Source: Candidatus Hodarchaeota archaeon
GTDB taxonomy: Archaea; Asgardarchaeota; Heimdallarchaeia; Hodarchaeales; Hodarchaeaceae
DNA length: 34,139 nucleotides
Direction: 5' to 3'
Assembly: GCA_016839815.1 (NCBI GenBank)
Contig: JAEOTM010000169.1
Coordinates: forward strand, 1 to 34,139
Shown here: positions 956 through 22,657 of the stretch, in pieces
How positions within the stretch are numbered: position 1 is the stretch's first letter
Layout of the letters: the number at the start of each line of letters is the position of its first letter
Made by a program: the position numbers and the translations under genes
The notes under the pieces: generated by a model
Told to the model about the DNA's origin: nothing
The model's database searches: none
What the model saw: only the letters and a program-made list of their open reading frames with translations

Positions 956-2284
956 TTGGTAAAAAGTATGAAAAATCTACAGGATTCATCGGCCTATAGT
1001 GTACAATTCTTTCTTGCGCATATCATATTCGATGAAGAACATGGTCCAATGCTTAAATCATTCATGGCTGATCATATTGAAATTCCAAAGATAATTCTTC
1101 AAGGAGTTACAACAACTCTCTTTACAATGGCAGTTGGTGTAGGAGAACCAACAGGTGAACCAGATACGGCCATTATCCCTATAAATGTAACTGGAATACA
1201 AGGTAGAGTGTTAATTCATTCATTTTCAATAGATGATCCCTCTGCTCGCGGAAAAAACAGAATTGAAAGTTTTATGTTGTTCATTCCTCGGTCTCATCAA
1301 GATAAATTGTTACAGCATTCCTATGCGTTCACAAATATCCTTCAAAATGCAATTCATGATATTCAGGTACATAATGCTGATGAAGACGGTCAATTTGACC
1401 TAGATGATGTCTTTACAAATATTAAAAAAATACTTCTGACAAGAATAGACAATATTGTCCAAGATAGAATCAGTGCAATTTGTACAGATAAAGAAACCGT
1501 TATTGTTTCTGATGGTACAATTCGTGCCATCCATAATATCGTGCTAACACCTGAAATTATCTCTCTTGTTAATAAAATCCCTTTTTTATTAAAAAATTAT
1601 GGTGAGGAACTCAAAAAGTATGGAACTTTTTTTGATGCACTGCCCATTGAAATCCATGGAAAAACATCAAGTAAACAACAATTTTACTTAATAGCCATTG
1701 AAAACAATTTTATTTTGGCATTTAGTTCCGGAAAGGGACGACTGGGTAGTTTATTTCGTAGTTTTCGTGAGATTTTATGGGATCTTGATATTCTCGATTC
1801 ACAACGAGCAGCTCTGAGTATCCCCTCCTCGATCACACATTATGAAGATAAAACAAGTAGTTTTACTGATAATCAATTTCTGAATCTTAGTTATGATATT
1901 CTAAAGAATTTTTCTCCGATTATATCCAATGCATCTCTATTGAGATGTGCATGTGATTTATCGAAGATTGAATCAATAAGACTTAGTGATGGTAATGCAG
2001 GTAAAAAACATGCCTATATCTGTGCGATCTTCTCAATAATTCATGAGGTTTGTGAGCGATTATTTCGAACCTCTCTTATCGAACTTGTTCTTTCCCAACA
2101 TGGCTTTAATTCAATAGCATTAAAGTGGGCAGTAAGTAGTTCCAAAGATACAGCATTATTTATGGTTGGTGACTCAATTCGTGGTGTGGGATTATTGAAA
2201 CTCGTCGGTGACCAAATTCTGGAGCATAAAATTGAATCTGGCCCTCCTTCGAATGAAGTACGATTAAAACCGATAAGTGAATAA
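956..2284 (+). CDS. Folliculin/SMCR8-like longin (uDENN) domain fused to two roadblock-like domains
   Basis: N-terminal FLAHIIFDEEHGP and HSFSIDDPSARGKNRIESF resemble the FLCN/SMCR8 motifs (FCELHGP; FFIKDSLARGFQRWYS). Two C-terminal alpha/beta units end in roadblock-like GRLGSLF and GVGLLKL helices. The likely start is ATG at 968. Confidence 0.65.
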   Translation: MVKSMKNLQDSSAYSVQFFLAHIIFDEEHGPMLKSFMADHIEIPKIILQGVTTTLFTMAVGVGEPTGEPDTAIIPINVTGIQGRVLIHSFSIDDPSARGKNRIESFMLFIPRSHQDKLLQHSYAFTNILQNAIHDIQVHNADEDGQFDLDDVFTNIKKILLTRIDNIVQDRISAICTDKETVIVSDGTIRAIHNIVLTPEIISLVNKIPFLLKNYGEELKKYGTFFDALPIEIHGKTSSKQQFYLIAIENNFILAFSSGKGRLGSLFRSFREILWDLDILDSQRAALSIPSSITHYEDKTSSFTDNQFLNLSYDILKNFSPIISNASLLRCACDLSKIESIRLSDGNAGKKHAYICAIFSIIHEVCERLFRTSLIELVLSQHGFNSIALKWAVSSSKDTALFMVGDSIRGVGLLKLVGDQILEHKIESGPPSNEVRLKPISE

Positions 2285-6682: not shown

Positions 6683-7639
6683 TTGAAGATTTGTGAAGAG
6701 ATTATGTCAAGTATCCTCAGAAGAATATTCAAAGGGAAAGATCAACAACATCAAATAGTCATAATTGGTCTTGATAGTGCAGGTAAAACTACTATTGTAA
6801 ATCGGCTTTTACGATCTGAATTTATCCCTACAACAAGAACATTAGGTGTAAACTATCGAACTGTCAAATATCGGCAGATTATGTTCAGTCTGATAGATCT
6901 GGGAGGACAAGAGATCTATAGAAATTTACTCTGGCAACCCTCACTAGAGAAAGCTGATGCTATTGTATTCGTTTTAGATAGTGCTGATCTTAGGATTTCC
7001 GAAGCTTCCAAGGCGTTCTGGGAATCTATCCAACAAAATGAAAACGCACCAGTTTTGTTTATCGCAAATAAAATAGACCTTCCTGGTGCCCGAACATTTG
7101 ATACAATCGTACAAGATTTAGATTTAACACGCGCTACTCGATCATCTCGACCAGTTGGTCTCTTTAGAATCTCAGCAAAAACAGGTGAGAATTTTTACGA
7201 CGCATTTGATTGGTTAGCAGATGTTGTAGTAGGTTCTGAGTCCGTTTTTAAATGTAAACTGAGAACTGTCATTTTAATCGATTTAGATTCTCACAAAATC
7301 TGGACTACTAAGTTTTCTTCTCTTAAAAATGAAATATTGGATGAATTCAATAGAAGTATTTCTGAAACAATGCACGAGCTAATGAAAGAACCTGCAGGGA
7401 TGGAGGTTATAATTGCATCCGACCTACAATTAGTTGTAGTAAAGAATCACCCGTTGGTTGTGGGGCTAATCATAGGATACTCGGATTCGGTTGTTCGATC
7501 GAAATTGATCGCAGAACGTTTAATGAATACAGCAAGCTCATCTATTGAAATTGGTGAGTTTAGTTCAGATGTTTTAACTAAGCTTCTTAAACGTCAATGG
7601 CCTTTAGATATCTATAAGTCTAAACCCCGAAGCGACTAA
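6683..7639 (+). CDS. Arf-family small GTPase with C-terminal longin-like domain
   Basis: G1 GLDSAGKT, G3 DLGGQ, G4 NKID and G5 SAK. The likely start is ATG at 6704, giving an amphipathic N-terminus (MSSILRRIFKG). There is a C-terminal alpha/beta extension of about 130 aa. Confidence 0.85.
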   Translation: MKICEEIMSSILRRIFKGKDQQHQIVIIGLDSAGKTTIVNRLLRSEFIPTTRTLGVNYRTVKYRQIMFSLIDLGGQEIYRNLLWQPSLEKADAIVFVLDSADLRISEASKAFWESIQQNENAPVLFIANKIDLPGARTFDTIVQDLDLTRATRSSRPVGLFRISAKTGENFYDAFDWLADVVVGSESVFKCKLRTVILIDLDSHKIWTTKFSSLKNEILDEFNRSISETMHELMKEPAGMEVIIASDLQLVVVKNHPLVVGLIIGYSDSVVRSKLIAERLMNTASSSIEIGEFSSDVLTKLLKRQWPLDIYKSKPRSD

Positions 7640-7668: not shown

Positions 7669-9975
7669 TTATAGATATCCTCTAATATCTAAAATATCCT
7701 TACGAGCAATTTCAGACTTACCCAGCAATTTCTTTTCGAGTTCTTCAAATTCTTTGACAATTTTCTCATTTGCACTAGGATGGATCCCGCGCTTGGCTTC
7801 TGTGAAATGTTTCTTAGTGATTTCCTGAACTTCCAGATCTTCCCTTAAAGCAATCATAACAGCTTCGCGGCATATAGCAGCAATATCAGCACCAACATAT
7901 CCCGTTAGATCCGTTGCAAAAGAATCAAGGTCGACATCTTTGGCTAAATTCATACCTTTCGTATGAATAGCGAAAATTTTTCTCCGACTTTCAATATCAG
8001 GAGGGGGAACGAGTAATAAACGATCAAATCTCCCAGGACGTAAAAGTGCGGGGTCTACCATATCAGGTCGATTACTAGCAGCTAACACCACTACATCCTG
8101 TAGACTCTCTAATCCATCTAATAATGAAAGGATTTGGTTTACTACACTTTCCATAACATGACTTCCCCCACTAAGAGCTCCTCTTCGTGGAGCAATCGCA
8201 TCAAGTTCATCTAAAAATATAATTGAAGGTGAAGCCTGCTTAGCTTTGCGGAATACTTCACGCACAGCTTTTTCACTTTCTCCAACCCATTTAGAAAGTA
8301 ATTCAGGACCTCGGATGGCAATAAAATTCGCCTGACTCTCTGTAGCGACAGCTTTCGCTAAAAGTGTCTTTCCAGTCCCAGGAGGGCCATAAAGAAGTAT
8401 ACCATGAGGGGGGTTGACTCCATGTTTGTTAAAGATTTCGGGATGATTAATAGGCCATTCTACTGCTTCTATCAATTGTTGTTTGACACTCTCCAGTCCC
8501 CCAACATCATCCCAATGAGTATTTGGAATTTCAAGTAGAACTTCTCTCATTGCGGAGGGTTCGGTAATTTTTAACGCTTCATCAAAATTTTCTTTGGATA
8601 CAACAAGAATGGAGAGAATTTCTGGTGTTAAAGGTTTATCGAAATCAATCTGAGGCAATATCTTTCGAAGAGTATGCATTGCTGCCTCTTTAGTAAGAGC
8701 AGCAATATCGGCACCAACAAAACCATGTGTTTTTGCTGCATATTCTTTTAAATCAACGTCTTGTGTAATAGGCATTCCCCGTGTATGAACAAGTAACACT
8801 TCATATCTTCCATGTCGATCAGGAACCCCGATTTCAATTTCTCTATCGAATCTTCCTGGTCTGCGTAATGCAGGATCTAATGCATTCGGGCGATTAGTAG
8901 CTCCGATTACAATAACTTTTCCTCTACTTTTCAAACCGTCCATAAGAGCAAGTAATTGAGCCACGACTCGTCGTTCTACTTCTCCAGTAACTTCCTCACG
9001 CTTAACGGCAATAGAATCGAGTTCATCTATGAAAATTATACTAGGTGCATCTTTTTCCGCCTGTTGGAATATCTCTCTAATTCGTTGTTCACTTTCTCCA
9101 TAGAATTTTGACATAATTTCGGGTCCAGCAATAGAAACGAAGTTAACGCCCGATTCATTGGCAACTGCTTTTGCTAACAAGGTTTTACCAGTTCCAGGAG
9201 GTCCATGAAGTAAGACACCTTTCGGAGGATCAATTCCCAATCTCTGGAATAACTCGGGATGCTTCATAGGAAGTTCAATCATTTCCCGAACACGCTTAAT
9301 TTCTTCCGAAAGTCCACCAATATCTTCATACGTTACTCTCGGTAACATTCGCAGATCCTTAGGAGCTTCTTCTATAATTTTAACCTCTGTACCCTCCCCA
9401 ATAATTATTATACCTTCAGGATCAGTGGCGACAACAACTACTTTGATTTCACCTAAACTAACTGGACTACTAGTGGTATTAAAAAATCTAGATATGAAAT
9501 CATCCATTCCAGCTCCAGTAGATGCACCTGTGGGAGGGATCTTTCGAATCTGCCCTGTTATGACCAATAAATCTCCCCGGGATATAGGACGATTTTGAAG
9601 ACGTTCTCTAATTATTTCTGATCGTACTAATAATCTTATTCTCTCTTCTGCGGGTGCTATCGTAATCCTTTTAGCAACTCGTTTTTCAATTGGTTTGACT
9701 GTGATTGTTTCACCCAGACTGGTTCCTACATTTCCTCGAATTAATCCATCCATTCTGATAATTCTTTTACCCCTATCTTCTCGTCTACCCGGGATAACTA
9801 ATGCTCCAGTCCTGCGCGCTCCAGCTCTTTCACTGGAAAGTTCAACAATATCACCAGTTTCTAAACCAAATTCACGCATGATTGCATAATCTATACGTAC
9901 CAATCCGCGTCCAACATCACTCTGATTAGCTTCCACTACTTTCAATGTCAGAGCCTTGCTATTATTATTTGACAT
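7669..9975 (-). CDS. cdc48: CDC48/VCP/p97 AAA+ ATPase
   Basis: N domain ([10 protein letters not shown]) and two AAA modules, each with GPPGTGKT, a Walker B motif (IIFIDE; IIFLDE) and an SRH ([10 protein letters not shown]; [10 protein letters not shown]). Confidence 0.97.
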
Positions 9976-11192: not shown

Positions 11193-14100
11193 ATGTTGAA
11201 TATCATGTCGTCGGAAGCATCAGAAGATTCTCTTGTATCTAAAAAAGATCTTCATGAATTGGGTGTTGTAGCAACAGAATTACGATCAATTGATCCCACA
11301 GTGCAGGTAATTTCGTCTTTAAACGAATCACAAAAATTAATTACACAGATTCAAAAACTAGAGAAAGATTTAACCACAGCAGGGTTCTTTAAGAAAAGAG
11401 GACTGAGTAAATCTCTCTCTCAGAAGAAAAACCAGTATAACAAAACTACAGAGAAGCTTTTGAATACAGTACTCGCAGGTTTTCGACGGATATACTTTGA
11501 TCTTGCGAAGAATATCAAAGAGATTGCTAAATTCGTACCTCAAGAGACCGAGGGTATAAAGAATATCCAAATTCCAAGTTTAGAAACAGCACTCGTTCTG
11601 AAATTTAGTAATTCAGTTTTAGCAATATATAATAAGGTAGCTGAAGTTCTCAAAGGGAAAAATATCTCCACATTGTTGTTTAATCGAGAAATCATAGAAT
11701 TATATGGAAAATTTGTAAATTTTGATGAAGAAAAGATCCGTATATCAAGTCAAACATCGAAAGCAAGTATCCATGTAATGACCATCTCAGACTTATTAGA
11801 ACTGTATAACAACTTAGAAGCAGAAAATGCTTATTTAAAACAGAGAAGGAAGGGAACAGAAGGGAAAATCCAAGCTGAAATTGTTCGTCTGGCATCAACA
11901 TTGCATCAACATCTTGGTACCATTTCTTCAATTGGTATACAACTCTCGAGTAATATTGAAACACTTCAATTGAATTTACAAGAAATTCAGAGTAATGCAG
12001 ATACAAGTACGTCAGTAGAAAAACTTATTGAGTTAGAAAAAAGAATTAGCAGTTTAAGAAACGAATTCATAAACTCTCTGCGTACCTATGAGATATCATT
12101 GAAAACAGAAACCGAGGATCAGATCGGACGGATAATTCAACTAATTGGTGATGATGAAATTGACCCTTCTATAGTTTCTGCACCACATATTGATGTTTCC
12201 GCCTCTGAAATACCTGTGATCATTCAAGATATTGAAAAAATACGTTCGTGGCATTCAAAATTAATCATTGCGCTGAAAAAACTTGTAAGTACTGCTGAGC
12301 TAATTAATGCGGCAAAAACTATGCAAGTAATGAAATTTCCTATTCCTGATGATTTTTTTAAAGATGTTAAAGCAATTGAGAAAGAGACTGAGAAAGCAAA
12401 CGAGCTTCAGATATGGGTGGAATTAGTAAAACAATATTATGATTTTAGATTTACACTTGCAGCAGAATGTCAGAGTTATTTCTTCAAAATGCTGGAAAAT
12501 CCTCACATTCAAGAAGCTATTAGTTTAACTGATGGGCCTCCGATTCCAACAGTAAAAGATTTTGAATCTCTTTCTCCAGGAGAATTAGTTGCAAAAGCTA
12601 GAGAAATTAAAGACTGGGAAGCTCGTCTAGTTGCCTATTTTTCGAAACCCGCTCAACAAAATATACGTCAGAATTTAATAAGTCTTTATGACACTCGTGA
12701 TAGTCTAAAAGACTTAATTTCTGACGATTTGAAAGAAGAAATAGATCGCTTACGTGATTATAAGAGCGAAGAGGAAAAAGAAGTAAAGGATTTGGTTAAA
12801 GAAATTGATTATCTAAACCAATTATCTTCCAACCTCCGACGAGAGATTTGGGTTGCAATTGACGGTGAGATTCATCCAATCGCCAACCATATTACTACAT
12901 TGGAAACTATTCCACCCAAACTCAAAGTACATGTTCCAAAATTGGAATTAGACGATTTAAAATCGATTAGAGAAGAAATAGAAATATCAACTCAGGATAA
13001 AGTCAAGAACTTGCTTGATGAATATGAAAAGATCACGATCTGGAAATATAAAGTATCGACCCGTATTCGTGAGAATATTAAAGGTATTTCATTTCCTTTG
13101 ATCCCCATAGAGACACGATTTGATTTAAGAGAAAAACGAAATGAAATTGTGAAATTGATCGATAGTCATGCTGAGATCGGAAATACTGAAGCGATAGTTA
13201 GAGAATATATTTCATTTTTAGAAACAATTGAGGAAATGAAGGTAGAGATTCTAGTAGAGATTAAAAATCAAATTGATGGATTAGAAGCCGTTGATAAACG
13301 ATTATTTAGACTGATGAAAACTGGAACTAGCAGTGTGAGCTATAGTTCAGAAAATGATCTTGAGAATTTAGATTACTCAGAGGCATTAACAGAATATTGG
13401 CAATTACTGTCATTCATTGATAGAAAGATATCCACACTTGTTGAATTAATGAATCGTGAAATTTCATCACATATGCAAGATTATTCTAAGTTACCACCTC
13501 AATATGCCACATTTTTTGAGGAACCTCTTGAGCTAATGAAAACAAAACTAGAAGAAATAAAAACTCACAAAGACGTTGTCAGATTAGTTGATAGTTATGA
13601 GAGTTACAGTCTTGAGAGTATGCAATTAGCAAAAGATTCACTAACGAAATTACATCAGAATCTGTATAATTGGTTGAGAGTCAGTCTTCCTCGAATTCAT
13701 GAAATCTCACCATTAAGCGATAGCGTTTTCGCAGCAGAGCAAAAAATCTATAACTTTCAACCAGAAGAAGTCTCACATGAAAGATTAGCACACAATTTAC
13801 GAGAATTGATTTACTTCTACGATACAGAAATTGTTGCTGTTCTTCTATCACATGGAGTGTCAGAATCACGACAAGTTCTTAAAGATGTTAATGACCTCAA
13901 AGACGTCGGTATTAACATTCTGGAGTACGTTGCAGGTTATATCGAAGTTTTTTCACAGGTAATAGTAAAACATCAAGATGATGTTCATCTAAGAGAGATT
14001 ACTGAGGTCTTCGTAGAAATTGATAAGTTACAAAACGATAATAATGCCTGCAACGCAATACGTACGACTGGTGAAAGATATATAGCCGAAATACAGGACA

Positions 14101-14714
14101 CTATTGAATATTTATTTAACTCTTTTCAGATTGATTTACGTTCAGAAGATCGAATTGACTTTGCATATTTAAGTGAATTCCAACGTATAGCTACCACTAA
14201 TCACGTTCATCATTTGACTCAGGCAATTATTAGATTGAGCCAGGTTCGAGCTGTAGTCGTTCAATTAATGAAAGTAATTGAGAAAGATCGGAATGCGAAC
14301 TTACAGACTAAGCTAGGAACATTAGACTATTATTCAAACATTCAAGAGGTCTTCAAAAAGTACTCTGATGAGGCATCAAAGAAAATATATCCTTTATCCA
14401 AATTGGTGGAAGATCGCGCCGAATTTATGAATTCACACGATTTAAGATTTTTATTAGATATGTTCCCAAAAATTGAAAGTCAACGAATGGAATGGGAGAG
14501 AGTATCAATTCAGTTGAATCGTTGGCATAGTGCTTTTCGGATGTTTAGAGCTCGATACTTGCCTGCAGAGAACCAAGAGGAGAATAAGAGGCAATTCAAG
14601 GAGATTTCAAAGAGAATCATGGATACTTATCCCCGAAATAAAGTAATCGGTGCATATTTATCTTTAGTAATGAAATTATTTATTGAAATTAAATCTGGTA
14701 TGGAACTAGAATAA
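11193..14714 (+). CDS. Large all-helical repeat/coiled-coil protein (1173 aa) of unknown function
   Basis: Long ORF rich in E/K/L/I with no TM segment or catalytic motif. Helical units of about 60-70 aa recur. Its stop is 14 bp from the tubulin-like gene. Confidence 0.8.
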   Translation: MLNIMSSEASEDSLVSKKDLHELGVVATELRSIDPTVQVISSLNESQKLITQIQKLEKDLTTAGFFKKRGLSKSLSQKKNQYNKTTEKLLNTVLAGFRRIYFDLAKNIKEIAKFVPQETEGIKNIQIPSLETALVLKFSNSVLAIYNKVAEVLKGKNISTLLFNREIIELYGKFVNFDEEKIRISSQTSKASIHVMTISDLLELYNNLEAENAYLKQRRKGTEGKIQAEIVRLASTLHQHLGTISSIGIQLSSNIETLQLNLQEIQSNADTSTSVEKLIELEKRISSLRNEFINSLRTYEISLKTETEDQIGRIIQLIGDDEIDPSIVSAPHIDVSASEIPVIIQDIEKIRSWHSKLIIALKKLVSTAELINAAKTMQVMKFPIPDDFFKDVKAIEKETEKANELQIWVELVKQYYDFRFTLAAECQSYFFKMLENPHIQEAISLTDGPPIPTVKDFESLSPGELVAKAREIKDWEARLVAYFSKPAQQNIRQNLISLYDTRDSLKDLISDDLKEEIDRLRDYKSEEEKEVKDLVKEIDYLNQLSSNLRREIWVAIDGEIHPIANHITTLETIPPKLKVHVPKLELDDLKSIREEIEISTQDKVKNLLDEYEKITIWKYKVSTRIRENIKGISFPLIPIETRFDLREKRNEIVKLIDSHAEIGNTEAIVREYISFLETIEEMKVEILVEIKNQIDGLEAVDKRLFRLMKTGTSSVSYSSENDLENLDYSEALTEYWQLLSFIDRKISTLVELMNREISSHMQDYSKLPPQYATFFEEPLELMKTKLEEIKTHKDVVRLVDSYESYSLESMQLAKDSLTKLHQNLYNWLRVSLPRIHEISPLSDSVFAAEQKIYNFQPEEVSHERLAHNLRELIYFYDTEIVAVLLSHGVSESRQVLKDVNDLKDVGINILEYVAGYIEVFSQVIVKHQDDVHLREITEVFVEIDKLQNDNNACNAIRTTGERYIAEIQDTIEYLFNSFQIDLRSEDRIDFAYLSEFQRIATTNHVHHLTQAIIRLSQVRAVVVQLMKVIEKDRNANLQTKLGTLDYYSNIQEVFKKYSDEASKKIYPLSKLVEDRAEFMNSHDLRFLLDMFPKIESQRMEWERVSIQLNRWHSAFRMFRARYLPAENQEENKRQFKEISKRIMDTYPRNKVIGAYLSLVMKLFIEIKSGMELE

Positions 14715-14728
14715 GAGGAAGATCAGAT

Positions 14729-16099
14729 ATGACAATGGAAGAAACAGAAAGCGAAATATTCGCTATAGGAATCGGAGAATGCGGTAGCAATCTTGTAGGC
14801 AGTTATCTTGCGAAATCTAAAAAGGGGGAACTTCCCCAAAGGATTCGTGAATATCTTGTCATGAATACCGATCGGGGAGATTTATTAAAAGCACGAAAGA
14901 AATATTCAATATCATCTAAACGAACTTTACTCTATTCAGATGCAGAAATAGGGGTTGGTGGAAAGTTCTCTGCTGGTTATGAGTCAGTCATTAACTCTGA
15001 AGATATTATCTTAAATCAGTTACAAGCATTGGGGTACGAAGGGATTAGTGGATTTTGTATCTTTACAAGTTTTGGAGGAGGAACTGGCTGTGGAGGTACT
15101 CCAGCCTTAATTCGATTATTGCGCAAAAGATTCGCGGAACAAGAGAAGCGAAAAATCTTCATTTATGTCTTTGGAGTTTTACCATTCGTAAATCAGTCTT
15201 CAGAAGCTGTGAATAGTGTATGGGCTTTATCCAAACTCCTTCGATTACAATTAGAAGAGGGAAACATGGGTCCAGATCTGATACTTCTTCTTTCAAATAA
15301 TACTATGTTGAGTCGCGTGCTAAGTATGCAAAGAGGAGAAGCAGCTGATTTGATCTCACGAGAAAAAGGACTTGATTTGACAGCTTTAGATAGTAATGTT
15401 ACGCGGCCAAATGTATTAGGCCAAACTGAAGCACCTCTTCCTGTTCAAATGGAAGAAGCATTTGTCGAACTGATTAATCCCTTAGCTCTCGAATCAATTG
15501 CAGAGATGTTATCACCTGGAGTTCCAGAACTAGGAAAAGAAGTTCTACCAACCACTGATATCGGAGATTTTGCGCTTAAATTGGATAGTGTTGTTGTACC
15601 AGCCATGTTCGATGATTTATCAATCTTTCCTGAAGTAGGTGATGTAGGGAATCAATTGGGAGCTGCGGTTGAGTATACTGCTGCTCATTGCAGTTTAACT
15701 AATATGGGAACAAACCCCGCAGCTTCATCAGTGTTTTCGGTATTAAGTGGACCTAAAGAAATCGCACGAGTTGAATATGATCCTCTGTTGAAAAAAGCGC
15801 TCAGTCCATTTTTAGCCAAGGGGGCAAGTATATCTCCCACTTATTGTGCATACGATGATGAAAAAGCACGAGCTTCTCTTTTATTATTATTTGGTCTTCC
15901 AAGGATACCAGAATTATACGATATATTGGAAGAGGCAAAATCCCTTATACGTTTACATAGTGGCGATTCAGAATTAAAACAGCACTGGTTTAAACGTTCA
16001 AAAGGTACAACAAAAGAAGAATTAGAAAATGCTGTAAACGATCTTGAAAAATTATTTGGTTATTATATTACTCCCGACCAAAACCAGGCAGGTAAATGA
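14729..16099 (+). CDS. Tubulin/FtsZ superfamily GTPase (divergent; CetZ/FtsZ-like core, tubulin-like C-terminal helices)
   Basis: T1 GIGECGSN, T2 NTD, T3 GVGG, signature T4 GGGTGCGG, LPF, T7-like TTDIGD and C-terminal HWF..G....E...A..D...L...Y. Confidence 0.9.
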   Translation: MTMEETESEIFAIGIGECGSNLVGSYLAKSKKGELPQRIREYLVMNTDRGDLLKARKKYSISSKRTLLYSDAEIGVGGKFSAGYESVINSEDIILNQLQALGYEGISGFCIFTSFGGGTGCGGTPALIRLLRKRFAEQEKRKIFIYVFGVLPFVNQSSEAVNSVWALSKLLRLQLEEGNMGPDLILLLSNNTMLSRVLSMQRGEAADLISREKGLDLTALDSNVTRPNVLGQTEAPLPVQMEEAFVELINPLALESIAEMLSPGVPELGKEVLPTTDIGDFALKLDSVVVPAMFDDLSIFPEVGDVGNQLGAAVEYTAAHCSLTNMGTNPAASSVFSVLSGPKEIARVEYDPLLKKALSPFLAKGASISPTYCAYDDEKARASLLLLFGLPRIPELYDILEEAKSLIRLHSGDSELKQHWFKRSKGTTKEELENAVNDLEKLFGYYITPDQNQAGK

Positions 16100-16143: not shown

Positions 16144-17151
16144 ATGAATTTTAATGAAGATCAAGACCCGTTAAAAAATCCTTCTCCTAATCAGAGTACT
16201 CTTAGATTGTTAGAAGGTAAATTAGACTTCCTAATTAATTTAAATTTAACAAGTATGAATTTAATTATTGCTCTCTGTTCAAATATTAACGAGAGAGATA
16301 GGATTCCTGAGGGATTACGCAACGAGCTAAAAGCAATTCATTCTGCTTTACCTAATTTGTTAACCCTAAAGGAGACTAGGCCTGTTTTCATGAATCTTGT
16401 TGAATCATTAGACTCTAAGCTAATGGAAATCATTGGAACTTCTGCTTCTAATGAAGCTAGAGAACAAATTGATGATAGTCCAATTTTAAGAACCAGTAAT
16501 AAAGAAGTGATTAAAGGTTTCAATAGGTATGAGAGTTTGATTGATAAATGGGGAATAATTGAATCCATTGAATCATTAATGAATTCTTACGCCAATCTAT
16601 CAAACTTAGCATTCCCTACTTACTATCTTCATGGATGCAAAGAAATCCAGCGATATACCTTAACCCAAGAAATCCCAAATCCAAATTCCCATGAAATAAT
16701 TCAATTTCCATGTTTAAAAATTCGAGATTTAATTTTCAAACTGCTACGAGAAGCCCCAGCAGCGCGATTATTGCAGAATTTGAGAAAAATGTTTCCATTA
16801 CAAAATAAAATAGAAATAAGTACTGTAGAGGAATCAACTATTCACGAAATTGTGGAAAAGTATATTACGAGCACTTCGGATTTTCTCAATGGAAAACGAA
16901 CCCTTTCAGATACTGTACGCATAAGTTCTTCAGTTCTCCAGCAATATAATCTTGGACCTGGAGATTTGGAATCGAGAATCCCAAATGTGTCTTTTTCTGT
17001 TGTTAAAGATATCCAAAAAGAATTTCAACTTGCAAGAGGTAATGATTTCAGACAATTTATTTATTCAGAAACAATAGTACTGATTCATCGATTGAATGAT
17101 GCTATTCTGAATAATGATAGGTTTATTGTGCTATTACGGAGACTTAAATAA
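16144..17151 (+). CDS. Hypothetical helical protein downstream of the tubulin-like gene
   Basis: 335-aa ORF, 44 bp after the tubulin-like gene, with an SD-like GAGGT. It has an N-terminal heptad-like segment and no recognised family motif. Confidence 0.7.
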   Translation: MNFNEDQDPLKNPSPNQSTLRLLEGKLDFLINLNLTSMNLIIALCSNINERDRIPEGLRNELKAIHSALPNLLTLKETRPVFMNLVESLDSKLMEIIGTSASNEAREQIDDSPILRTSNKEVIKGFNRYESLIDKWGIIESIESLMNSYANLSNLAFPTYYLHGCKEIQRYTLTQEIPNPNSHEIIQFPCLKIRDLIFKLLREAPAARLLQNLRKMFPLQNKIEISTVEESTIHEIVEKYITSTSDFLNGKRTLSDTVRISSSVLQQYNLGPGDLESRIPNVSFSVVKDIQKEFQLARGNDFRQFIYSETIVLIHRLNDAILNNDRFIVLLRRLK

Positions 17152-17307: not shown

Positions 17308-18186
17308 TTGGGAATCGAAGATAGCCTGAAACAAATTTATGATGTAAATGTAAAAATCTATCAAATGCTTCAACAGAGTCAGGATATTTCACAAATCCGA
17401 CAAGAGCTTGAAAGCTCAATTCGCAATTTTTCTGATGTTGCTATACAAATAGATGCTAAATTTCAAGAAAGTGCTCGAACGATCATTCGTCACGTTCAGG
17501 AATCATATGAGGGACTTAATCCTGAGATTCTTGCTTCGATAGCACAACTTCCTCCTGTTCTCGGTACATTGGAATCAACATTGAATGAGATAGAGACTAT
17601 CTTCAAAACTACTCAAGTAAAAATCGAAGAAGATTTGAATAAAATTAAAGCAGGATACGTTGATGACGTTGTGGGACGGATGAAAGATTTATCAGCAAAT
17701 TTAACTGGAATGATCCAAGTTTCTACAGAGAATACGCGTAATCAATATGCTGCAAGCATCGATAGCTTTGTATCAGTTTCAGATGACTTGAAAACAATGG
17801 AAAGTCATCTAAATTCTTTAATTGAGAACCAAACTGATCAACTAGCCACCGTTGCTGATCTACGTGATCGTGTAAGTGCGATAATTCAAGTAGAACTTGC
17901 TTCTTTACGTGATCATATCAATATTAATCTCGAGAATTCTGTGAATGAACTTAAAACATCCGTTACCGAGCGTTTAATGGTACAAGATGGCACTATTCAG
18001 AGATTATCTCAATCCGTTGATAAATTGAATGAATCAGTTTCTAGTTTACCTGAAGTGATTAAAGGAGAGATCAATCTAGCGGTGGATACGAAATTGATTA
18101 GTACAATTGAAAAAATGGAAAAAGAGAACAGAAAAACCACAGCTCTTGTTGTAAATTTAATAAGAAAACTACAAGAAGATTCTTGA
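17308..18186 (+). CDS. Coiled-coil protein
   Basis: 292 aa of nearly continuous amphipathic helix with no TM segment. TTG start; TATA-like TTTATATAA at 17192-17200. Confidence 0.7.
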   Translation: MGIEDSLKQIYDVNVKIYQMLQQSQDISQIRQELESSIRNFSDVAIQIDAKFQESARTIIRHVQESYEGLNPEILASIAQLPPVLGTLESTLNEIETIFKTTQVKIEEDLNKIKAGYVDDVVGRMKDLSANLTGMIQVSTENTRNQYAASIDSFVSVSDDLKTMESHLNSLIENQTDQLATVADLRDRVSAIIQVELASLRDHININLENSVNELKTSVTERLMVQDGTIQRLSQSVDKLNESVSSLPEVIKGEINLAVDTKLISTIEKMEKENRKTTALVVNLIRKLQEDS

Positions 18187-20139: not shown

Positions 20140-21102
20140 ATGACGACTAGTGTGAGTAAACTTACCCGTTTATCACGAGAGAAAAAAACAGGAAACATCA
20201 TTCTTTTTCTTGCCATAATCTTTGGATTAATCTTCCTTTATAATATTCTGGATTCTGATTTGAATACATTAAACGACCAAGTAATAATAGCTGGAATAAT
20301 CATATTTAGTCTCGTTTTTGGTCACGTAATCAATAAATCACTTCGTCAACCTTTTTTCACGGAGGTTTCACGTTATCGTGGGGAATTAAATGATCGAAGA
20401 CTTGACATCCAACAGATAGTAGTCTCTGTGGATATGATACGACCCTTACAACTGCTTTCAAATGTAAAAAAGGTTTTAAAAGAGATACAAGGGTATGTAA
20501 ATGCCGTATCTAGCTTTCTGGAACAATCTCTATCTGAAAAAAATCTATCTGCACATCCCTTTCAATCCTCTGAAGTACAGCAACTTCTCCAAATTGTAAT
20601 AGACTCTGCAGAGGAAGCGATTCTTGAAATTGATAAAAAACATCAAAATCTTATTTTACTTGCCAAAACAAGGAACCATTTATTTAATAGTCTCAATCAA
20701 CGAGTAACTAGACCACAAAACGAAGTTGAAATTGATTATTTATACTATCGTATCCACAAGGACCTTCCTGAATTAATGGTTGATTCCTCCTTAGTATTAG
20801 ACGTCTTAAAACATGCTCTTGATAATGGAGAATTATATGGAACACTAAAACGAGATGAAAGTGGGGAACTAATCATCGTTATTGGTGAGGTTCCTATACG
20901 ATCAAATCAAGAAAATTATTCTTGGGGGAATATTAGTGAGACCCAAGATTTCTGTGTTATATGTCGACAATCTGTTACTTCTCAAGAACAAAAAGTAACC
21001 TGTCCCGAGTGTAGAAATGTTTTTCATCGAACACACTTACTAGAATGGTTAAAAGTATTTAATCAATGTCCTATGTGCCAACAGAGAATAAAAATGAACT
21101 AG
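20140..21102 (+). CDS. Membrane-anchored RING-finger protein (putative E3 ubiquitin ligase)
   Basis: Two N-terminal hydrophobic helices, a helical middle region and a C-terminal CVIC..CPEC..FHRTH..EW..CPMC RING variant. Confidence 0.8.
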   Translation: MTTSVSKLTRLSREKKTGNIILFLAIIFGLIFLYNILDSDLNTLNDQVIIAGIIIFSLVFGHVINKSLRQPFFTEVSRYRGELNDRRLDIQQIVVSVDMIRPLQLLSNVKKVLKEIQGYVNAVSSFLEQSLSEKNLSAHPFQSSEVQQLLQIVIDSAEEAILEIDKKHQNLILLAKTRNHLFNSLNQRVTRPQNEVEIDYLYYRIHKDLPELMVDSSLVLDVLKHALDNGELYGTLKRDESGELIIVIGEVPIRSNQENYSWGNISETQDFCVICRQSVTSQEQKVTCPECRNVFHRTHLLEWLKVFNQCPMCQQRIKMN

Positions 21103-21874: not shown

Positions 21875-22657
21875 TTATACATAAAGGCCTTTACTTGGGC
21901 CTAACACTTCTTGTTGAGAAATCTGACGATTTTTATCCGCAAGCTCCATGAGAGATTTTTGAATTTTCTCCGCATCAGATAAGAGTTTCGTAACGTCAAT
22001 ATCAAGTTTTTTAATTTTACTTAATGCTTCAATTAGTCGTGCTGCCCCTCCAGGATCAGGATAGGGGGTAGAAATGGGTGTTAATAATGAAATTCCTTCC
22101 ATAGGACTAAGTAAAGCTTCGTTCATAATCGCTCCTGACAACCCTGAAATAAAACCCGTGTGGGGTTTCGGAAAATTGTGATCCTTCAATTCTTCATTCT
22201 CCTGATAGACTTGAGGTTCACACACCAAGTAAACTTGATCAGATTTATTCTCTCGAGGATCTGCAATAAATCCATCTAAACAAATAACTTGTTTGGTTCC
22301 ATTATTTTTTGCCCATTGCATCATTGCCTGAGCTAGATAGTAATATGCCTGAGGAGGACAGGGAGATTCACCTATTAACACTCCAATTTTCTTATCCTTA
22401 CAACCATAAATTCGATAAGGATAAGCAAGTACTCCATCAATGAACACAGATACCGGAGGAATCAAGGGAGAACGTATTGAACCAATCCACTTTAAATCCA
22501 GTTCACTAATAATGTGTTTAGCCGCGATATTGCCCACTAATCCGTGACCAGGAAACCCAACAACAATCCATTCAGGAGAAATATCACTTGTGCATTCACA
22601 GACAGTTTGATCTGCATCCGTACGGATTACATATTCTGATGATTGATTAGGCATCAT
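21875..22657 (-). CDS. PAC2 family proteasome assembly chaperone (PbaA/PbaB-like)
   Basis: GFPGHGLVG, PYRIY, PDPGGAARLIE and IDVTKL motifs, plus a C-terminal HbYX motif (LYV). Confidence 0.9.
   Translation of the reverse strand: MMPNQSSEYVIRTDADQTVCECTSDISPEWIVVGFPGHGLVGNIAAKHIISELDLKWIGSIRSPLIPPVSVFIDGVLAYPYRIYGCKDKKIGVLIGESPCPPQAYYYLAQAMMQWAKNNGTKQVICLDGFIADPRENKSDQVYLVCEPQVYQENEELKDHNFPKPHTGFISGLSGAIMNEALLSPMEGISLLTPISTPYPDPGGAARLIEALSKIKKLDIDVTKLLSDAEKIQKSLMELADKNRQISQQEVLGPSKGLYV

Follow-up and report, generated by a model that had tools for sequence, protein, structure and literature searches.

Tubulin-like C-terminal helices predicted on the CetZ-like core of an Asgard-specific tubulin/FtsZ-superfamily GTPase

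The contig JAEOTM010000169.1 of Candidatus Hodarchaeota archaeon (assembly GCA_016839815.1), which we analyzed over its whole length of 34,139 nucleotides and refer to as the window, carries an intact gene for a 456-residue GTPase of the tubulin/FtsZ superfamily (P0001). The protein is an orthologue of the Asgard-specific Asg.Tub clade. Our reading, to which we assign a probability of roughly 0.7, is that its chain is CetZ-like through helix H11 and that the last ~30 residues form a hairpin of the tubulin H11'-H12 type. In tubulins these two helices lie on the outer surface, the 'MAP/motor-binding face' of microtubules (MAP, microtubule-associated protein). A hairpin of this kind would most simply have been inherited from an ancestor common with the tubulins, or exchanged anciently. 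As the family is already published, the gene is no new find; what we add is modest, namely a quantified H11'-H12 likeness with a structural model, counts of a gene cassette over 80 genomes, and a second paralogue in the Hod/Heimdall lineage.

Sequence and predicted fold place P0001 in the superfamily. Pfam PF00091 matches residues 9-170 at 63 bits (cut-off 33), and the superfamily signature GGGTG[ST]G appears as GGGTGCG at residues 116-122, within the T4 stretch GGGTGCGG; this variant, with Cys at the position of Ser in tubulin and Thr in FtsZ, is present in 80/80 loci. Neither Tubulin_C (PF03953; none at E <= 0.1) nor FtsZ_C gave a Pfam match in P0001, and with the FtsZ equivalog model TIGR00065 it scores 30 bits where the cut-off is 295.2. 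The best relatives of solved structure by sequence are CetZ proteins (3zid, 2.7e-7; 4b46, 1.2e-5), followed by weaker matches to alpha-tubulins (~1e-4, over residues 90-147 only) and OdinTubulin (1.8e-3); the closest homologues overall carry Hodarchaeales or Heimdallarchaeota labels. An AlphaFold2 (AF2) model of P0001, predicted with 31 family members, has a mean predicted local distance difference test score (pLDDT) of 82.6 and a predicted template modelling score (pTM) of 0.84. Its strands and helices follow the canonical order, and the two-domain fold, the core helix H7 and the T7 loop with its acidic residues are all present, with the loop placed between H7 (239-260) and H8 (280-284). In Foldseek searches with this model, tubulins and CetZ proteins are inseparable, all scoring ~1e-17 to 1e-19.

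The group was named 'Asg.Tub', a 'CetZ-like group in Asgardarchaeota', by Santana-Molina, del Saz-Navarro and Devos (2023; PMC9871819), and an alternative name, 'CetZ-related Asgard archaeal clade', has been used since (10.64898/2026.02.15.705738). In the 2023 account it is an Asgard-only group of unstable position between CetZ and tubulin, with a C-terminal hidden Markov model (HMM) that matches nothing outside the group and with unknown coiled-coil genes as neighbors (PMC9871819). Four founders are listed in the supplement to that paper: OLS26264.1, PWI48967.1, KXH77455.1 and OLS30664.1. P0001 is 95% identical to the locus (L009) of B3_Heim, the metagenome-assembled genome (MAG) that is the source of PWI48967.1, and few positions differ between its C-terminus and that printed for this founder. 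The start of another of our sequences, P0058, is exactly that of OLS26264.1 as printed. Both P0001 and P0058 fall in an Asg.Tub clade of 18 rows in our maximum-likelihood (ML) tree, with a Shimodaira-Hasegawa-like approximate likelihood-ratio support (SH-aLRT) of 95. P0001 and the published Asg.Tub are thus the same family; nothing sets P0001 apart, and unknown, mostly helical neighbors are found alike. The alignment file for Fig. 6 of the published study already places the Asg.Tub string ...KQHWFKRS.GT...TKQELEDAV... under tubulin ...FLHWYTGEGM...DEMEFTEAE..., on which the main text makes no remark (PMC9871819).

The evidence for the C-terminal likeness comes from profile comparisons. We used a family profile of 32 sequences, a tubulin profile of 12 Asgard and verrucomicrobial and 3 eukaryotic sequences, and a CetZ profile of 11 sequences, one of which matches Haloferax volcanii CetZ1 (PDB 4b46) at 3e-113. 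Two Heimdall sequences in the tubulin profile belong to another genome in the window's class, and the remaining ones came from a search seeded with one of them. When the C-terminal profiles of Asg.Tub and tubulin are aligned with hhalign, HWF..G..H12 falls over HWY..G..H12 with a score of 27.9 (P 2.3e-5). For the same segment, the score falls to 10.3 +/- 2.6 over 100 column permutations (highest 21.3), to 8.2 when the profile is reversed, and to 10.7-16.0 with two decoys, unrelated helical families encoded in the same operon. With full-length profiles, Asg.Tub 419-446 and tubulin 402-428 are the reciprocal best site (28.9 and 28.2; next-best 14.5 and 12.6), and a global profile alignment again sets HWF on HWY, in the stretch of second-best confidence after the GTPase core. 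Among single sequences, the segment is identical to two Heimdall tubulins at 13/28 and 10/28 positions, and 0/500 shuffles reach either score. A preliminary description of this DNA, made from its letters and open reading frames, had quoted these 28 residues correctly, residue 419 starting at position 15,983 and residue 446 ending at 16,066, and had proposed a match to the tubulin pattern with a single insertion; the hhalign alignment scoring 27.9 reproduces it, with one gap of one residue.

The AF2 model points the same way. Three helices, at 394-409, 415-425 and 429-443, are predicted after the strands 362-375 and 383-389, following S10. Structural alignments to CetZ end at residues 412-418 (325-326 residues aligned), whereas those to tubulins continue to residues 445-450 of the model, paired with tubulin ~417-434 (352-366 residues aligned). 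The ~30 extra residues that align with tubulin are the last two helices, which are therefore placed in the model as tubulin H11' and H12. In other words, the C-terminal helices H11, H11' and H12 are predicted to sit on the core in the tubulin order and place.

The positions that make up this segment are conserved across the family. In the 80 genome loci that underlie our conservation counts, W420, F421, R423, K425, G426, A435, D438 and F443 are invariant, and L432, L442 and Y446 are conserved in 79/80. His419, by contrast, occurs in only 17/80, with Gly in 42 and Ser in 18, so that the 'HW' motif named at the outset is better described as 'WF', which is family-wide. The Baldr/Odin branch (41% identity) retains W-F, K-S-K-G, A and L-F. 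These numbers may be compared with the GTP-loop positions G14, G16, E17, G19, N46, T47, D48, G75, G77 and G78 and with the T7 residues T276, D277 and D280, all at 80/80; D277 is also invariant in alignment with CetZ-like sequences. The residues of the C-terminal face are therefore conserved as strongly as the active site, and the GTP loops, the T7 acids and the WF..G..A..D..LF..Y positions (79-80/80) are under purifying selection.

Upstream of the last helices, the affinity is with CetZ. The hhalign match to CetZ covers 351 columns (residues 9-405) at E 4.7e-30, that to tubulin 110 columns (residues 75-197) at E 2.5e-8, and tubulin is itself closer to CetZ (E 1.6e-16, 192 columns) than to Asg.Tub; a C-terminal-only comparison of Asg.Tub with CetZ covers helix H11 alone. 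The FtsZ/CetZ-like core proposed in the preliminary description is in this way borne out, as is the character of its NTD, GVGG and LPF loops, all invariant and aligned with loops of CetZ. Like CetZ (H. volcanii CetZ1/CetZ2, 4b46/4b45; Methanosaeta thermophila, 3zid), Asg.Tub has an NTD-type T2, a two-acid T7 and H11. It differs from CetZ in the GGGTGCG T4, in a ~25-45-residue insertion before H7, in its gene neighborhood, and in the two extra conserved helices after H11 (WF..G..A..D..LF), to which no CetZ in our set aligns; the CetZ-type C-terminus, the end of H11 followed by a variable tail, is not that of Asg.Tub, where helices 415-425 and 429-443 follow. The insertion before H7 has pLDDT <50 over residues 219-240 of the AF2 model, falls in gapped columns of variable length, and is unaligned to both CetZ and tubulin.

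With the tubulins (alpha/beta/gamma, AtubA/B, OdinTubulin 7evb, BtubA/B) Asg.Tub shares the order and place of H11, H11' and H12 and, within H11'-H12, the W-aromatic, G, A, N/D, L and Y positions. Elsewhere the likeness to tubulins is confined to T3-T5/H5 (110 columns). Asg.Tub has no Tubulin_C match, no acidic tail, the tail of P0001 being non-acidic just as the preliminary description held in noting the lack of an E-hook, and no H1-S2 insertion, opposite which the global profile alignment leaves a gap of 27 residues. Its loops, NTD and TTD..D, are of FtsZ/CetZ type in contrast to the DLEP and N.D..E of tubulin, and it is a single gene where tubulins form an A/B pair. FtsZ belongs to the same superfamily and shares the GTPase domain and the T7 acidic pair; compared with it, Asg.Tub lacks an FtsZ_C-type tail and has H11-H12.

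In a quick ML tree (LG+C20 with posterior mean site frequencies, 64 rows, 395 columns, rooted on Asgard FtsZ), CetZ is paraphyletic, and above it Asg.Tub joins the tubulins and a halobacterial-like clade with an SH-aLRT of 83. For all its profile match to CetZ, Asg.Tub branches outside core CetZ in this tree. Its sister group in this tree (SH-aLRT 98) comprises four metagenomic sequences, P0126, P0132, P0135 and P0153; the C-terminus of P0126 is without the W-F motif, and P0132, of 612 residues, belongs to a cluster labelled Bathyarchaeota or 'archaeon'. These four could serve to date the origin of the H11'-H12 segment. Two other candidate likenesses were set aside: an H12-like 'F..IR.NL..YL' motif in the halobacterial-like clade (P0136, P0144, P0157, P0161, P0163), which scored 10.8-16.1 in hhalign at the wrong positions, and a phmmer match of the M. 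thermophila CetZ tail to residues ~383-443, which at 2.6 bits was a second domain below threshold.

Several points weigh against a tubulin-type hairpin on a CetZ-like protein. No tubulin was retrieved at E <= 10 when the full set of 177,635 PDB sequences was searched with an HMM of the last ~50 residues; the top match was a chance H.WF.KSKGV match in an [Fe]-hydrogenase small subunit, so that the likeness is detectable in directed comparisons only. Against ape or ctenophore beta-tubulin the segment has 7/28 identities, with scores that 26-32 of 500 shuffles attain, which is borderline. Because tubulin structures were part of the AF2 training set, how the last helices pack is a prediction. The published verdict puts Asg.Tub nearer CetZ than tubulin (PMC9871819). 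An approximately unbiased (AU) test of a tree with the tubulins outside the whole CetZ/Asg assemblage did not reject it (delta lnL 0.31, p 0.50). Finally, we found in the literature no experimental work, biochemical or cellular, on any Asg.Tub member, and no report of GTP-dependent polymerization by one. The signal therefore comes from Asgard tubulins (13/28) and from profiles, with the eukaryotic comparison (7/28), the kind drawn at the outset, borderline. We consider that the H11'-H12 likeness is real and position-specific, judged from sequence comparison, but weak, and not database-significant alone.

The segment might instead be an extension specific to this lineage, added to a CetZ-like protein, that came to resemble tubulin by chance or under the similar constraints of packing a short aromatic helix and an amphipathic one onto the same surface of the core, with no common descent. 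The PDB-wide search, the clearly CetZ-like core and the shuffle p of ~0.05 with beta-tubulin would all fit such a history, and the column-permutation null is lenient because it destroys helical periodicity. On the other side, the helical decoys reach 10.7-16.0, where the tubulin match has 28-29. The match moreover lies at the reciprocal best site, in the structurally equivalent place; its 13/28 identities to a Heimdall tubulin are unmatched in 500 shuffles; and the matching positions are those conserved in both families. We therefore regard convergence or chance as quite unlikely. An ancient mosaic, in which recombination with an Asgard tubulin gene supplied the last ~30 codons of a CetZ-like Asgard gene, seems to us very unlikely. 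It would account for a tail that is nearest to Asgard tubulins (13/28 and 10/28 identities; eukaryotic tubulins, 7/28) in a protein whose remainder aligns to CetZ, and both gene types do exist in Asgard archaea. True tubulins are rare, however (1/83 genomes of the class), no abrupt boundary of identity is seen, and the identity of the tail is below 50%. The motif is also fixed in the Hod/Heimdall, Thor, Hermod, Borr, Sif and Baldr/Odin lineages, so that any transfer would predate the radiation of the family and is, with present data, indistinguishable from common descent.

The tubulin-like H11'-H12 also raises the question of whether Asg.Tub is a true stem tubulin, an intermediate toward eukaryotic alpha/beta-tubulin. 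The grouping of Asg.Tub with tubulins and the halobacterial-like clade, without core CetZ (SH-aLRT 83, FtsZ-rooted), is what such a position would give, and the same unstable placement was reported before (PMC9871819). Against it stand the AU result, the missing Tubulin_C match and H1-S2 insertion, and the tubulin profile, which lies nearer CetZ than Asg.Tub; the long tubulin stem (2.96) in addition invites long-branch artefacts. We judge a stem position unlikely. The preliminary description had called the protein a structural intermediate between CetZ/FtsZ and tubulin. As a statement about structure this agrees with the model for the C-terminal helices, and does not extend to the core, which is CetZ-like outside the last 30 residues; as a statement about the tubulin stem, it is permitted by the SH-aLRT of 83 and the AU p of 0.50 and is not established by them. 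The reading that we favor remains a CetZ-like Asg.Tub protein that ends in a tubulin-type H11'-H12 hairpin.

Asg.Tub is encoded in a conserved cassette (Table 1), with intergenic gaps of mostly 0-20 nt. A homologue of the upstream gene lies directly 5' of Asg.Tub in 75/80 loci; in four of the other five the contig ends first, and in one (L008) there was room and none was detected. The encoded protein is 900-1185 residues long across the family and gives BLASTP matches of 1e-60 to a Heimdall locus and 1e-15 to a Thor locus. It has no Pfam family and no specific fold match in structure searches, and AF2 predicts an all-helical protein, a chain of long helices (pLDDT 82, pTM 0.40). Between the Hod and Thor proteins the N-terminal (~12-362) and C-terminal (~737-1161) parts are conserved, the middle is variable and ~270 residues shorter in Thor (896 residues), and W1101, W1111 and H1112, near the C-terminus, are invariant or nearly so. 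Downstream, a homologue of p335 (~350 residues in the family) lies directly 3' of Asg.Tub in 70/80 loci, with a BLASTP match of 2e-19 to a Thor locus; p335 has no Pfam match above the cut-off, and an ESM Atlas search returned no usable match. A predicted complex of Asg.Tub with p335 scored 0.00, which counts neither for nor against binding. The gene for a 292-residue helical protein that follows is present in 15/80 loci, all Hodarchaeales-like with an Asg.Tub identity of at least 82%, and its product gives sub-threshold Pfam matches only. No hydrophobic segment strong enough to span a membrane occurs in any of the four cassette proteins. A scan for sigma-70 promoters and intrinsic terminators gave fewer matches than shuffled sequence, these models being uninformative for an archaeon. 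The G+C content of the window is 33-41%. Genes of eukaryote-signature type lie near the cassette, among them a folliculin-like gene (PF11704, 27.9 bits) and an archaeal CDC48; together with the labels of the closest homologues, they mark the DNA as that of an Asgard archaeon.

Table 1. Position of Asg.Tub, its segments and neighboring genes in the window.
Feature	Position (nt)	Strand	Evidence
Asg.Tub gene, 456-residue tubulin/FtsZ-superfamily GTPase (P0001)	14729-16099	+	intact open reading frame
N-terminal GTP-binding domain, residues 9-170; T1 GIGECGSN, NTD and GVGG loops	14753-15238	+	Pfam PF00091
T4 signature GGGTGCGG, residues 116-123	15074-15097	+	80/80 genomes, including C121
Family-specific variable insertion between H6 and H7, ~residues 214-238, predicted disordered	15368-15442	+	pLDDT, alignment
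T7-type loop T-T-D277-I-G-D280, with the acidic pair of the FtsZ/CetZ catalytic loop	15551-15568	+	conservation, model
Helix H11, residues 394-409, common to CetZ	15908-15955	+	AF2 model; hhalign to CetZ ends at 405
H11'-H12-like segment, residues 419-446: W420-F421 helix, R-S-K-G turn, amphipathic helix (A435, D438, L442, F443, Y446)	15983-16066	+	sequence statistics, AF2 model, conservation
Upstream partner, 1173-residue all-helical protein, 14 nt 5' of Asg.Tub	11193-14714	+	synteny, BLASTP, AF2
Downstream partner, 335-residue protein (p335), no known family	16144-17151	+	synteny, BLASTP
Fourth co-oriented gene, 292-residue helical protein	17308-18186	+	synteny
Folliculin-like gene	956-2284	+	window
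C-terminally extended Arf-family GTPase gene	6683-7639	+	window
RING-finger gene	20140-21102	+	window
CDC48 gene	7669-9975	-	window
PAC2-family gene	21875-22657	-	window

The distribution of Asg.Tub is patchy. It was found in 77/201 sampled Asgard genomes, including 9/10 in the window's own family and 40/43, 15/19, 4/4 and 5/5 in four others, and in none of the other sampled families of the window's class. The lineages recovered are Hod/Heimdall, Thor, Hermod, Borr, Sif and Baldr/Odin. Nearly all named homologues come from Asgard MAGs, apart from two members of the Baldr/Odin cluster that depositors labelled Bathyarchaeota or Thermofilum. Several Hodarchaeota/Heimdallarchaeota genomes hold a second Asg.Tub paralogue of ~440-448 residues and 52-54% identity (loci L041, L059, L068, L069, which equals L002, L070, L073, L077 and L081). 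It arose within the Hod/Heimdall lineage (SH-aLRT 98), and its cassette retains an upstream partner of ~1140 residues and lacks the p335 homologue downstream. On CP070695 the second paralogue is flanked by Arf/Gtr1-like GTPases and a Roadblock/LC7-like gene.

The window's own genome (89.5% complete) yielded one copy of Asg.Tub and, on another contig, a bona fide FtsZ. A third, very divergent superfamily gene of 453 codons is found there on contig C52 (L005:481-1842); its product matches PF00091 at 43.8 bits, has GSGGTGVG in T4 and an N-terminal extension of ~65 residues, and, with a branch length of 4.34, is not placeable in the tree. The gene after it encodes a hydrophobic, probably membrane, protein. 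No true tubulin was found in this genome by a Tubulin_C search that did detect a tandem pair in another genome of the class (G038; L006:751-3334, 433 and 432 residues, both Tubulin_C positive), the only one of 83 with true tubulins. The true tubulin pair and Asg.Tub do not co-occur in the sampled genomes.

We suggest, by analogy with the characterized members of the superfamily, that Asg.Tub would bind GTP via its conserved T1-T6 loops and polymerize head to tail in a GTP-dependent manner. Each subunit would, as in FtsZ, CetZ and tubulin, contribute its T7 loop (D277/D280) to complete the GTPase site of its neighbor. On the outer face of the filament the H11'-H12 hairpin would then be exposed and, more speculatively, could dock there the proteins encoded by the flanking genes. 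Two observations fit a non-division role: a separate FtsZ is present in this genome, and none of the cassette neighbors was recognized as a division gene, sepF for example. Equally speculatively, the cassette may be a cytoskeletal module for cell shape or internal organization rather than division.

The origin of tubulin is debated, with CetZ, the artubulins and the recently found Asgard tubulins as reference points, and Asg.Tub has so far been used as an outgroup only, or dismissed as CetZ-like. A tubulin-like H11'-H12 on a CetZ-like core, together with recurrent partner genes, leads to the hypothesis that an outer-surface docking site is older than microtubules, and it makes available a three-gene system to reconstitute. 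The Hodarchaeales have been discussed as the archaea nearest to eukaryotes, and localization experiments may be feasible in view of their reported cultivation (preprint cited in PMC12583498). At its boldest, and in our view improbably, Asg.Tub would be the nearest living sister lineage to the tubulin stem, one that had the H11'-H12 surface before the tubulin core diverged, and its operon partners would be primordial readers of a filament surface. If this were true, the 'MAP/motor-binding face' of microtubules would predate tubulin itself.

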